A DNA stretch of 7,363 bases from a virus, in the IMG/VR virus record IMGVR_UViG_3300006182_000001; one strand, given 5' to 3'. The position numbers and the translations under genes were made by a program. Positions 3,323 to 7,350 of the stretch are shown piece by piece. Numbering within the stretch: the first letter of the stretch is position 1; the number at the start of each line of letters is the position of its first letter. Under the pieces are notes generated by a model. That model worked only from the letters and a program-made list of their open reading frames with translations. It was not told the origin of the DNA and did no database searches.

Positions 3323-3600
3323 TGGCTCTTCCGCTCTGTGTGTACGTCGATCAAGCAACCAACGCCCTGGTGGCCGCTGGTGAGTTTACCGGCGAATGCA
3401 CGGGCTACGTGCTCATAACTCCGGCCGATTGGGCGGGGTCTATGACGGTCGCTGAACTGTTCGGGTTTCCTGACCCGCTCGTTTTCGGCGCCACCTTCAC
3501 CGCAGCATTCGGCGCCGTCCTCGGATGCGCTGTGGTGGCCCACGCCGTGGGTTCTGTCGCCGGGTTTTTCAATCCAATTAACTCGATAGAGGAACTTTGA
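3322..3600 (+). CDS. 92-aa membrane protein (candidate minor virion/assembly protein) with a C-terminal TM segment ending in VAGFF
   Basis: The ATG at 3322 overlaps the preceding TAA (TAATG), with AGGAGG at 3309-3314. The C-terminal hydrophobic stretch is LVFGATFTAAFGAVLGCAVVAHAVGSVAGFF. Confidence 0.6.
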   Translation: MALPLCVYVDQATNALVAAGEFTGECTGYVLITPADWAGSMTVAELFGFPDPLVFGATFTAAFGAVLGCAVVAHAVGSVAGFFNPINSIEEL

Positions 3601-3602
3601 CC

Positions 3603-3743
3603 ATGGATCTCGATTTCGCCGCCATGATCGCCGCTGTATCCGCAACCGGAGCCGTCGCCGCCATCGTTTCGATGGGTGTCGTCAAGCTGTCCCCCAACTT
3701 CGCCCGCTGGGCGGTTAACAAGGTCGCCGGTTTCTTCCGTTAA
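3603..3743 (+). CDS. Major coat protein candidate, 46 aa, leaderless (Pf3-like class): MDLDFAAMIAAVSATGAVAAIVSMGVVKLSPNFARWAVNKVAGFFR
   Basis: The protein has an acidic N-terminus (D2, D4), a hydrophobic core, and a C-terminal part with four basic residues (K28, R35, K40, R46), as in inovirus major coat proteins. An RBS-like AGAGGA lies at 3587-3592. A strong terminator follows immediately, as after gVIII in Ff phages. It is below the ORF-track cutoff. Confidence 0.7.
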   Translation: MDLDFAAMIAAVSATGAVAAIVSMGVVKLSPNFARWAVNKVAGFFR

Positions 3744-3768
3744 TCGGCGCTTTCCCTTCGGGGACAAC

Positions 3769-3795
3769 AAGGCCCCTCACGGGGCCTTTTTGTTT
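3769..3795 (+). terminator. Rho-independent terminator after the coat gene
   Basis: AAGGCCCC (3769-3776), loop TCAC, GGGGCCTT (3781-3788), running into TTTTTGTTT. A small CCC-TTCG-GGG hairpin at 3754-3763 precedes it. Confidence 0.8.
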
Positions 3796-3806
3796 GGAGC
3801 ACGTAC

Positions 3807-3983
3807 ATGGACCTTGATTTTTCAACAATGGTTGAGTCGCTTACATATGCGTCCTTAGTTACCGCAATGGTTTCTTTTGGCGTTGTTCAGTTGTTTCCGA
3901 CTTTCACCATGTGGGCAGTTGATAAGGTTGCTGGATTCTTCGGTTACGACCCTTACGACCGTGACAACAAGCACGAAGACTAA
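3807..3983 (+). CDS. Diverged coat-protein paralog, 58 aa, with an acidic C-terminal extension: MDLDFSTMVESLTYASLVTAMVSFGVVQLFPTFTMWAVDKVAGFFGYDPYDRDNKHED
   Basis: GGAG at 3796-3799 lies 7 nt upstream of the ATG. By hand alignment, 25 of 46 positions are identical to the upstream coat protein, including MDLDF, SxGVV, WAV and KVAGFF. GC is about 45%, against about 60% for the upstream copy (hand counts 79/177 vs 85/141). Confidence 0.6.
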   Translation: MDLDFSTMVESLTYASLVTAMVSFGVVQLFPTFTMWAVDKVAGFFGYDPYDRDNKHED

Positions 3984-5514: not shown

Positions 5515-5523
5515 GGTGACGTT

Positions 5524-5871
5524 ATGATTCAGACAATAGTTAGTTGGATATCCGCGATCCTTCGATTCTTTACGCGCATATTTGAATGGTTCCTTGGCAT
5601 GCTCAAGGACATTATGGAGTTCTTCGCGGACCTCCCTGTTTTGATCTTCGAGGGAATCTTGGACGGGGCCATTTATTTGCTGTCCGCCATTCCTGTTCCT
5701 GAGTTCATGGCGTCCGGTAGTCAGGGCGCTTTGCAGGTCGCGTTCAATGCGCTCCATCCGGATGTCCAATACTTGGTTAACTTCTTTGGAATCCACCTAG
5801 GGCTTGCTGTTATCGGCGCTGGCGTTCTTTTTCGGCTAACTCGCAAGGCCGCAACTTTGGGCCAATGGTAG
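5524..5871 (+). CDS. gVI-like minor coat protein (115 aa, multi-TM)
   Basis: GAGG at 5513-5516 lies 7 nt upstream of the ATG. The protein is hydrophobic, about 112-115 aa, and sits between the gIII-like and gI/zot-like genes, as in Ff and Pf/Xanthomonas-type inoviruses. The assignment rests on synteny and physicochemistry. Confidence 0.6.
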   Translation: MIQTIVSWISAILRFFTRIFEWFLGMLKDIMEFFADLPVLIFEGILDGAIYLLSAIPVPEFMASGSQGALQVAFNALHPDVQYLVNFFGIHLGLAVIGAGVLFRLTRKAATLGQW

Positions 5872-5884
5872 GGAAGGGTAGAGC

Positions 5885-7045
5885 ATGATCTTTGGTAATG
5901 AAGGACTCCCGCGCTCGGGTAAGTCGCTTGATGCTATCCAGCATATTATTGATTCGCTCCAAGCTGGTCGCACGGTCATCACGAATATTCACGGACTCAG
6001 CGAAAGCGCCATCTCCGAATACTGCGCAATACCGCTGCCAACTGTTCAGCGTCTTCTCGTTTGCATAGTCCCGCCTAAAGAGTTGGACGAAGAAAAGAAG
6101 GTTGATTACGTCAAGGCTGAGTTTCTTAAGCGCCAGGTTAATGACTCGCTTTGGATATGGGACGAGATAAACCAGTTCTGGCCGCCTGAGCGTCAACCGT
6201 TGCCCGCTGAATGGGCGAAGTTCATCACCGAGCACGGCCACCTTGGTATTGATATCTTGATTATGGGTCAGGACCTATCTGAGCTTCATACCACTTGGCG
6301 CAAGCGGCTGCAGCGTTATACGCGGTTCACCAAGTTGGACATGATGGGCAAGGATGACCAATTCCACTGGCGCTCCCTGACAAACATCGGCAAGAACAAG
6401 TTTCGTGCAACTGCTGAAGGCAAGAAGCCGTATAACAAAGAGTTTTTCCCGCTTTACAAGTCGCACCGCGATGAAACTACGAACAAGGGTAACTATAAGG
6501 ACAAGCGCTTTGGCGTATTCCAGGCAAAGCATAAGTTCTGGGGTGCTGTCTTTGCCGTTGTCCTGGGTATTGCCATTTGGAATGTGGCCGGCTTCTTTTC
6601 AGCGCCCGAGGCACCAGAGAAAACCGAATCGGACGCGCCCGTAACCACTGAAGCAGCTCCGGCTACCGTTCCGCCACCTAAGCCGGCTCCTGAGGCTGAT
6701 GCGGTCGTATCTGAAACCGTCGAGACCAAGCGCGAGCCTATCGACTATCTCGACCAGTTCGCCCAGCAGTACCAGCTCCGTCTAGGCGCCATTCTGGACC
6801 GGCCCAATCCTCAGCCTGGACAGGCAGCGTTCGAATTCGTGCTTGATTTCGTGGACCCTTCATATCGCCTCAAGGAGCGTATGCGCCGCGTCGACGTTGC
6901 CGCCCTGGGCTGGGCCATTGAGCGTCACCCGTATGGCATCAGGATCGCCAAGGGCGATATCTCCTACGTCGCTCGCCCGTGGCCCCTGGACAACTTCGGC
7001 AAGGTTCCACAGGAAACCGTTAAGGCTCTCAAGCCGTCCCTGTGA
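5885..7045 (+). CDS. zot: Zot-like / gI-type phage assembly ATPase (386 aa)
   Basis: N-terminal Walker A GLPRSGKS (nt 5903-5926), Walker B-like LWIWDE, a single TM segment FWGAVFAVVLGIAIWNVAGFF (nt 6536-6598), a Pro/Ala-rich linker, then a C-terminal (periplasmic) domain. This is the typical zonular occludens toxin / pI architecture and position. Confidence 0.9.
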   Translation: MIFGNEGLPRSGKSLDAIQHIIDSLQAGRTVITNIHGLSESAISEYCAIPLPTVQRLLVCIVPPKELDEEKKVDYVKAEFLKRQVNDSLWIWDEINQFWPPERQPLPAEWAKFITEHGHLGIDILIMGQDLSELHTTWRKRLQRYTRFTKLDMMGKDDQFHWRSLTNIGKNKFRATAEGKKPYNKEFFPLYKSHRDETTNKGNYKDKRFGVFQAKHKFWGAVFAVVLGIAIWNVAGFFSAPEAPEKTESDAPVTTEAAPATVPPPKPAPEADAVVSETVETKREPIDYLDQFAQQYQLRLGAILDRPNPQPGQAAFEFVLDFVDPSYRLKERMRRVDVAALGWAIERHPYGIRIAKGDISYVARPWPLDNFGKVPQETVKALKPSL

Positions 7046-7164
7046 GGCCCGCCGCTGCTTGCAGCGTCGGCCGAACAGGGCGGTTGCTCTCCGGTCCCTG
7101 TCATCCTCGCGTACACTCCAGGCAGCCCCGGCGCGCGCTGTGCCGATATCGCCTTGGAGACCTC

Positions 7165-7350
7165 ATGCCAGCAGCTAACGACGATCAGATAGACGCCCAG
7201 CAGGATTTGGCCGTAGCGCTCCATGCGCGCTATCTGCTGGCCCTCAAGGGGCATCGTCGCGGCTCATTTGTCGCCGGCTTTTTCTACGGCTCGATGGTGG
7301 CCAGCATGTGCTGGTTTCTGTGGCCACGGCTCCAGACGCTTCTGTCCTAG
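7165..7350 (+). CDS. 61-aa membrane protein (MPAANDDQIDAQQDLAVALHARYLLALKGHRRGSFVAGFFYGSMVASMCWFLWPRLQTLLS)
   Basis: GGAGA at 7156-7160 lies 4 nt before the ATG. The ORF is GC3-rich. It has an N-terminal helix, a basic patch (KGHRRG), then a TM segment that begins with VAGFF. Its 3' end lies inside the terminal duplication. It competes with an antisense ORF (6964..7254), which I consider less likely. Confidence 0.5.
   Translation: MPAANDDQIDAQQDLAVALHARYLLALKGHRRGSFVAGFFYGSMVASMCWFLWPRLQTLLS

Follow-up and report, generated by a model that had tools for sequence, protein, structure and literature searches.

The viral DNA analysed here (the window: IMG/VR virus record IMGVR_UViG_3300006182_000001, 7,363 nucleotides (nt) in full) encodes the pentapeptide Val-Ala-Gly-Phe-Phe (VAGFF) in five different proteins, namely p92, the two coat proteins coat1 and coat2, the assembly ATPase Zot/pI and the small protein p61. 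Bases 1–120 repeat bases 7244–7363, so that the window corresponds to the circular genome, of 7,243 nt, of an inovirus (filamentous phage) of Pseudomonas. VAGFF does recur, more often than chance allows, and it is the protein sequence on which the recurrence is maintained. It is also only moderately surprising, since three of the copies lie in related coat-like genes and the other two are separately conserved helix-end caps. The explanation that we favour, to which we give slightly better than even chances, is a composite one: VAGFF would be the spelling on which an old and degenerate element of helix ends, kept by selection on the proteins, has converged locally.

A degenerate 15-mer for this peptide (GTNGCNGGNTTYTTY) matches the + strand of the window at positions 27, 3556, 3723, 3927, 6584 and 7270 and the - strand nowhere; in 200 dinucleotide shuffles the expected count was none. 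The sites at 27 and 7270 are one and the same on the circle, which leaves five unique sites. By motif scan and translation we could confirm that all five are read in frame as VAGFF, with the positions and codons listed in the original prediction. The nucleotides that vary between copies occupy positions 3, 6, 9, 12 and 15 of the 15-mer, every one a third codon position. While the cores are identical at 11–14 of 15 positions, the 30-nt flanks agree at only 3–14 of 30, which is the level of chance. The single exception is the upstream flank of the paralogous genes coat1 and coat2 (20 of 30). Variation limited to third positions, together with unrelated flanks, argues for constraint on the protein rather than for a DNA repeat, as had been proposed from the codons.

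Shuffling of the proteome does not reproduce the recurrence. With coat1 and coat2 merged as one protein, none of 20,000 proteome shuffles produced a pentapeptide common to at least four proteins, and this zero was obtained under global shuffling as well as under shuffling in blocks of 15 or 8 residues. The tripeptide GFF occurs five times (0.4–0.5 expected), and [GSN]FF eight times, in 8 of 13 proteins (about 0.8 expected). Further tripeptides of the [GSN]FF type stand in the gV single-stranded-DNA (ssDNA)-binding protein (NSFF, 3033–3041) and in pIII (PSFF, 4726–4734).

For comparison we assembled 106 related and reference loci, extending to 27% Zot identity. These relatives were recruited by protein searches and not by nucleotide similarity; a megablast of the whole genome against a phage collection returned a 34-nt stretch as its sole match. 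The relatives of the window are Pseudomonas inoviruses and prophages, among them phages WX_Y and 97-1 (~59% Zot identity), a Pseudomonas sp. metagenome-assembled genome (MAG) and Aquipseudomonas alcaligenes. Each protein family was aligned to window-clade profiles, and motif positions were tallied over distinct sequences, from 8 (p61) to 74 per family. Five genomes (the window and loci L001, L030, L033 and L035) carry VAGFF in p92, coat1, coat2 and Zot with differing codons; in Zot alone these are GTGGCCGGCTTCTTT, GTGGCTGGCTTTTTT or GTCGCTGGTTTCTTT. A peptide that stays constant while its codons change points to purifying selection on each copy.

The five copies do not share one position relative to the membrane. 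The p92 gene (3322–3600, + strand; matches phrog_969) lies directly upstream of the coat gene, and its VAGFF (residues 79–83; 3556–3570, + strand) closes a 32-residue hydrophobic helix, after which follows the acidic tail NPINSIEEL. Coat1 (3597–3743, + strand; 46–48 amino acids (aa)) starts at TTG 3597 or, more likely, at ATG 3603 behind GAGGA (3589–3593). It matches PF25631 Inovirus_capsid (E = 2.4e-14; 53.3 bits against a gathering cut-off of 27) and leaves no room for a signal peptide. An acidic N-terminus (MDLDF...) is followed by a hydrophobic core up to residue 32 and by a tail that contains K, R, K and R, and VAGFF forms the penultimate five residues (...WAVNKVAGFFR-stop; 3723–3737, + strand). 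Coat2 (3807–3983, + strand; PF25631, E = 2.1e-10; 40.7 bits against the same cut-off of 27) is, by alignment, a clear paralogue of coat1. It keeps the coat fold, has lost the basic tail residues and has a net acidic tail, in which VAGFF (3927–3941, + strand) precedes the acidic extension GYDPYDRDNKHED. The motif starts at residue 43 in coat1 and 41 in coat2, the hydrophobic cores end at 32 and 33, and the coat motifs thus close the C-terminal tail, some 11–13 residues beyond the membrane core (11 in coat1). Two unrelated lineages, L098 and L105, likewise have a second coat-like open reading frame (ORF) with an acidic tail.

The remaining two copies do lie at membrane boundaries. Zot/pI (5885–7045, + strand; PF05707, E = 4.3e-28; 98.6 bits against a cut-off of 20.3; Walker A GLPRSGKS) contains a lone membrane helix behind its ATPase domain, and VAGFF (residues 234–238; 6584–6598, + strand) marks the periplasmic, C-terminal end of this helix, with the basic segment KDKRFGVFQAKHK before and the acidic segment SAPEAPEKTESD after it. 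The small membrane protein p61 (7165–7350, + strand, within a longer ORF, 7042–7350) carries VAGFF (7270–7284, equivalent to 27–41; + strand) at the cytoplasmic, N-terminal start of its helix, in the context KGHRRGSF-VAGFF-YGSMVAS... The original prediction had placed every copy at the edge of a transmembrane helix. This location holds for Zot and p61, on opposite faces of the membrane, and fails for the coats, where the motif lies past the core, and for p92. That the copies lie neither all at a membrane boundary nor on one face speaks against the suggestion of a common sorting or insertase signal. Degenerate copies occur in two further proteins: VSGLF in the C-domain of the pIII-like protein (5308–5322, + strand; context IPIIAAVSGLFSVNVSG), where relatives have VAGFF, VSGFF or ATGFF, and LVNFF where the last hydrophobic helix of the pVI-like protein begins (5773–5787, + strand), a site that reads LVGFF in L002, L003 and L020 and shows weak conservation over the wider clade (13 of 72).

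Across the relatives, the pattern x-x-(G/S/N)-aromatic-F recurs at the same position within each family, in 8–74 distinct sequences and down to 27% Zot identity; the motif is not confined to the window genome. At motif positions 1 to 5, the coats (n = 54) have V44 / A25, I15 / G32, S12, A3, N3 / F32, W15, M7 / F51, and the p92-like proteins encoded upstream of the coat (n = 50) have V36 / V17, A15 / G20, N15, S10, A4 / F24, M8, Y8, W8 / F36, I10. The corresponding counts are L47, V11 / W18, V16, Y15 / G36, S9, H9, R5, D4 / F54 / F62 for the end of the Zot membrane helix (n = 74), V21, A12, T10 / T21, S13, G11 / G31, N12 / F51 / F58 for the pIII C-domain (n = 71), and V5, I2, W1 / L3, A3, V1, I1 / G8 / F8 / F8 for p61 (n = 8). 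The consensus is x-x-G-F-F in each of the five, and judging from these alignments it is an old, family-by-family consensus that was not invented in the window genome. The preference for Gly over Asn and Ser at position 3, with Ala rare, matches the C' residue of a helix cap and not the -1 residue of a signal-peptidase site.

Individual families are stricter than these tallies. The C-terminal consensus of the coat family is V-A-G-F-F itself, the entropy of the last Phe is only 0.4 bits, and the window clade follows KVA[GS][FM]F. In 29 database homologues of p92, G77 and G81 are invariant, and conservation of V79, F82 and F83 reaches 90% or more; window-clade relatives read V[AS]G[FM]F. Over 74 distinct Zot sequences no position of the membrane helix varies less than the two Phe (1.4 and 0.8 bits; 1.5–2.9 bits at the others), and relatives keep FF or FW while the rest of the helix varies. 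We found no literature on a Phe motif in the Zot membrane helix; the only paper that came into question deals with phenylalanines of Walker B. The p61 family, which occurs in the nearest Pseudomonas lineages only, reads IVGFF, IIGFF, VLGFF or WLGFF, so that the first two positions vary around an invariant GFF[YF]G. A GxxxG pattern is invariant in p92 (G77-x-x-x-G81) and p61 (G-F-F-[YF]-G) and absent from coat (N-K-V-A-G) and Zot (W-N-V-A-G).

All five copies are exactly identical in the window and L030 only. Lineages one step further out have VAGFF in p92, VAGMF in the coat and VVGFF or IVGFF in Zot, and the p61 carriers L002 and L020 have VLGFF. From these spellings, the state seen in the window is only one or two substitutions away. 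Known phages conform to the general pattern: Alteromonas phage phiAFP1 has coat ...KIIGWFR, Zot LTGFF and pIII VDGFF, and Ralstonia RSM3 has coat ...KVAAFF, ORF7 ...KVASFFDRG and pIII MTGFF, although its Zot helix ends LWHAL.

Several observations relate p92 to the coat. In a profile alignment (hhalign), the C-terminal helix of p92 matched the core and tail of the coat over 36 columns (P = 9.8e-6, probability 82%), while control membrane helices from pIII and pVI gave P >= 0.03 against coat or p92; with narrow alignments the p92–coat match reached only P = 0.005. Paired tails change together. In the Pseudomonas clade, coat RWAVNKVAGFF goes with p92 AHAVGSVAGFF; in a clade with phiAFP1 as its closest named phage, coat KWGFNKVIGWF goes with AWGFGVVVNWI in the upstream protein; and a third pair reads KWALNKVAAFF and AMLVSKVASFF. 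The motifs of coat and p92 share 2.58 of 5 identities when correctly paired and 2.01 of 5 when permuted (pairing permutation P = 1e-4), and the 17-residue tails behave alike (P = 0.004); both values are uncorrected for phylogeny. Several lineages have K or R in the p92-like tail at positions equivalent to those of the coat. Among the pairs tested, co-variation was confined to coat and p92: the Zot motif does not co-vary between genomes with coat (P = 0.97), p92 (P = 0.65) or pIII (P = 0.99), and neither the pIII nor the p61 motif co-varies with the coat. Lineages with a coat ending in GWF carry a Zot helix ending in GFF.

These profile and co-variation data suggest to us that p92 is a minor protein that derives from the coat or mimics it. 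This reading fits the position of the gene, where Ff phages encode pVII and pIX. In the Ff virion these tip proteins are single helices packed with pVIII (PMC10175506), and by analogy p92 most likely packs in the filament beside the coat. Like pVII and pIX, p92 is small, hydrophobic and encoded just upstream of the major coat, and its tail is coat-like. Unlike them, it has 92 aa, an acidic N-terminal domain (~50 residues, beta-rich by prediction) and an acidic instead of a basic C-terminus, and it has no sequence similarity to them. The protein contains an invariant Cys6/Cys26 pair and no Lys or Arg, so that its orientation in the membrane cannot be read from charges. An AlphaFold2 (AF2) model built on the 29-sequence alignment (pLDDT 75, pTM 0.38) places three short strands within residues 5–30 and a single helix at 52–80. 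In this model A80 is the last helical residue and G81 already lies outside the helix; local pLDDT falls there from 88 to 66. A Foldseek search of the model against the PDB gave no fold match (best E = 2.7), and for the PF25631 coat family there is no solved structure, the best matches being spurious (E = 0.41).

On the composite explanation, the old element would consist of a hydrophobic residue, any residue, Gly (or Asn/Ser), an aromatic residue and Phe, and would belong to the membrane-embedded morphogenesis proteins of inoviruses with PF25631 coats. The copies in coat1, coat2 and p92 may be alike through shared descent, through copying of the coat tail or through co-evolution as co-packing helices. 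Those in Zot and p61 would be independently conserved Gly-capped Phe-Phe ends that happen to have acquired the same spelling in the window lineage. Val-Ala would form the last helical turn, Gly, Asn or Ser the C-cap (C') residue, and Phe-Phe an aromatic plug that packs against neighbouring helices in the coat-like virion proteins or anchors the helix end at the membrane interface in Zot and p61. We infer this cap-and-plug structure, and the packing or anchoring role, partly from general helix capping and, as regards the role, by analogy with the packing of aromatic residues in Ff and IKe coats (PMC6431161). At the C' position of a helix (Schellman or alpha-L type), Gly and then Asn or Ser are favoured and a hydrophobic residue comes next, which is the same order of preference and the same sequel as in the inovirus proteins. 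This device is generic and not phage-specific, and it leaves the recurrence in many proteins of one virus unexplained.

A number of points weigh against this explanation. With wider-clade profiles, an identical pentapeptide in p92, coat and Zot is expected by chance at only ~8e-6 per lineage, which makes pure drift uncomfortable unless the starting point was the narrower [VI]VGFF of the Pseudomonas clade; some selection for identity of the motif may have acted. The profile of the Zot membrane segment is closer to p92 (P = 1e-4) and coat (P = 2.5e-3) than are those of control helices, which hints at a relationship where the composite explanation supposes convergence. The cap and plug are derived from one medium-confidence AF2 model (p92, pLDDT 75) and from residue preferences, the co-variation tests carry no correction for phylogeny, and charges do not reveal the topology of p92.

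The first two of these points lend some weight to the idea that identity is itself selected as a shared docking code, whereby a G-F-F helix end lets pI/pXI (Zot) and p61 engage all coat-like helices. We consider this unlikely, if far from negligible. One consensus spans coat, p92, pIII and Zot over a wide clade, four proteins of five related genomes spell VAGFF exactly, the three-family identity would be improbable if independent, and the Zot segment stands closer to p92 and coat than control helices do. In addition, how the inner-membrane machine formed by pI/pXI selects and admits membrane-embedded coat proteins is explicitly described as unsolved (PMC9228878). The fuller version of this idea seems to us a shade less probable still: the Gly-aromatic-aromatic helix end would be the docking element of a large inovirus clade, with pI/pXI displaying its own copy and recognising coat, coat-like tip protein and pIII as these enter laterally from the membrane. 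Against docking speaks that the Zot motif does not follow its supposed partners coat, p92 and pIII. The original prediction of helix packing between coat and Zot is likewise left without comparative support. Moreover, the Zot motif faces the periplasm but the coat motif lies at the end that is cytoplasmic and proximal to DNA; in RSM3 and close relatives of this phage the coat retains ...VAAFF and the upstream protein ...VASFF, yet Zot ends in LWHAL; and coats ending in GWF are paired with Zot ending in GFF.

It is improbable, in our view, that the Phe-Phe pair makes contact with DNA by stacking against bases of the packaging signal or of ssDNA in the virion. A similar role has been proposed for the C-terminus of the Pf3 coat. 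The coat1 motif does end a basic tail (K..R..K), which in known inoviruses is turned towards the DNA (PMC9228878; PMC10175506), the p92-like tails of several lineages have K or R at coat-equivalent positions, and F15 in the WAGFXF motif of PSB15 cross-links to packaging-signal DNA. The Zot and pIII copies, however, are periplasmic, the p92 and coat2 tails of the window phage are acidic, and the PSB15 motif is located in a DUF3653 beta-hairpin, a domain for which Pfam gave no match among the motif-bearing proteins scanned. Even less can be said for a processing site, which would consist of V-x-G and a following F where an N-in helix reaches the periplasm and would be cut by signal peptidase or another protease to release a C-terminal domain; we regard this as very improbable. 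Val at -3 and Gly at -1 agree with the established -3/-1 rule for signal-peptidase sites, and Zot of V. cholerae is cleaved after its transmembrane domain (PMC7541967). On the other side, residue -1 is often H, R, D, Y or N in Zot homologues and N in p92, with Ala rare, a spectrum on which we rejected the signal-peptidase reading. The coat and p61 copies are cytoplasmic, so that three of five are not periplasmic, and pI of Ff requires its attached periplasmic domain (pI residues 272–348; PMC9228878). Finally, the 15-mer might act as DNA, either as a protein-binding site or as microhomology for recombination or gene conversion, with the peptide a by-product. Five copies on the same strand where none is expected, and GC change-points at 3786 and 6583 near two of them, seemed to favour such a role. 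This possibility is largely refuted, and we give it almost no credence, given that all variable nucleotides are third codon positions in the same frame, the flanks are unrelated, relatives alter the DNA and retain the peptide, the GC step at 6583 is present in every relative, and similarity breakpoints lie away from the copies. Recent gene conversion was rejected because the flanks match at chance level next to cores with 11–14 of 15 identities.

The GC step deserves a separate description, since the original prediction had speculated that the 15-mers in coat1 and Zot, near the two ends of a low-GC cassette, could have served as microhomology. The step at 6583 is carried by codon positions 1 and 2 of Zot, where GC content rises from 0.45 to 0.59 (relatives: from 0.43–0.48 to 0.53–0.59), and third-position GC content (GC3) barely moves. 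It reflects amino-acid composition, because a linker rich in Pro, Ala and Glu begins after the membrane helix. On simple GC plots, this rise (6584–7045, in all related Zot genes) imitates a recombination boundary. Similarity breakpoints against L001 fall at 3110, 4413, 4799 and 7241, none of them at the 15-mers, and the proposal of microhomology does not survive. The true low-GC3 block consists of coat2 and gIII only (3807–5514; 0.49–0.50, coat2 0.49, against 0.65–0.76 in the genes to the left), and these two genes may form a separately acquired block.

Among described systems, the Ff and IKe coats offer one likeness. In M13 and IKe, aromatic residues near the C-terminus pack between neighbouring subunits (Trp26 with Phe42/45; PMC6431161). 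As in the window coat (W...VAGFF), conserved C-terminal aromatics in a single-helix coat follow a conserved Trp ~7–8 residues upstream, and in Ff and IKe their role is to pack neighbouring capsid helices. The window coat differs in that it belongs to another family (PF25631, without signal peptide) and its aromatic pair is terminal, Gly-capped and recurrent in non-coat proteins. The Pf3 coat (...GIRWIKAQFF) is similar in having 44 aa, no signal peptide, a C-terminal RW...K...FF and a Pseudomonas host. It has Gln and not Gly before its FF (KAQFF), the membrane helix of the Zot-like ORF301 shows nothing comparable and ends without FF, and a search with the coat profile of the window clade missed the Pf3 protein. 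By spelling, the nearest described motif is WAGFXF, through which PSB15 of Xanthomonas phage phiLf-UK binds the packaging signal (bioRxiv 10.1101/2024.03.19.585677). The earlier statement that no inovirus motif of this kind had been described thus needs the qualifier that this preprint motif exists, but in a different fold. Like the window motif, it is of the x-A-G-F type; PSB15 is an inovirus assembly protein that associates with the inner membrane, and one Phe of its motif makes the functional contact. PSB15, however, binds packaging-signal DNA through a soluble DUF3653 beta-hairpin, and the window motif ends a hydrophobic helix. Pfam found no DUF3653, with the flanking LTG and TPE motifs expected for the PSB15 type, in the ten proteins scanned. 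We therefore rejected identity with WAGFXF of the PSB15 type, the letters being shared and fold and context different.

The remainder of the genome has the gene order typical of inoviruses (gII, gV, p62/p92, two capsid genes, pIII, pVI, Zot, p61). It comprises the replication protein gII (1127–2494; PF05144/PF05155), a gV-type ssDNA-binding protein (2835–3119; PF02303), the small ORFs p62 and p92 between gV and the capsid genes, a pIII-like protein of 496 aa (4024–5514) and a pVI-like protein (5524–5871; DUF2523). DNA similarity to L001 is undetectable over the N-terminal, presumed receptor-binding part of gIII (4413–4799), and the flanking structural genes are ~88% identical. Protein identity of gII to L001 is only 38%. 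This divergence of gII and of the gIII N-terminus, set against neighbours at ~88%, marks the genome as a mosaic. L035 and L036 are a tandem prophage pair of a close relative on the 613-kb MAG contig ZJbm.115_MAG_8_2, and their p61 homologue is truncated to 54 aa with an altered end. This shortened p61 suggests a prophage attachment site in or adjoining the 3' end of the gene.

Two non-VAGFF repeat regions were also observed. Just downstream of a 71-aa gene on the - strand lies a cluster of hairpins (810–880), made up of GACGCC...GGCGTC (810–828), GGGGGTG-CTGTAA-CACCCCC (837–856) and the perfect 20-bp palindrome TACCGCGGAATTCCGCGGTA (861–880). Bases 828–861 are 100% identical to Pseudomonas phage 36-2, and the 810–880 block is the sole non-coding stretch that matches across L001, L002, L003 and L009. 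The block may be a packaging signal, a terminator or an attachment site. In the 5' part of the gII ORF (1148–1211), GATTTGTCGACA(A/T)AT units recur as direct and inverted repeats, which may represent an operator or an origin element.

For inovirus biology, these observations describe a short helix-end element common to the coat, the coat-like upstream protein, pIII and the assembly ATPase over ~100 related loci. They also define a small, precisely located set of residues for mutation, cross-linking and modelling. The previously unnamed p92/phrog_969 family appears from sequence comparison to be coat-like and probably virion-associated. Should the element serve in docking, the convergence of four to five proteins on VAGFF would make the window lineage its clearest natural example. 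If it is only a generic helix cap, the case would serve as a warning that exact recurrence of a peptide in a tiny genome can come from paralogy and a few substitutions.

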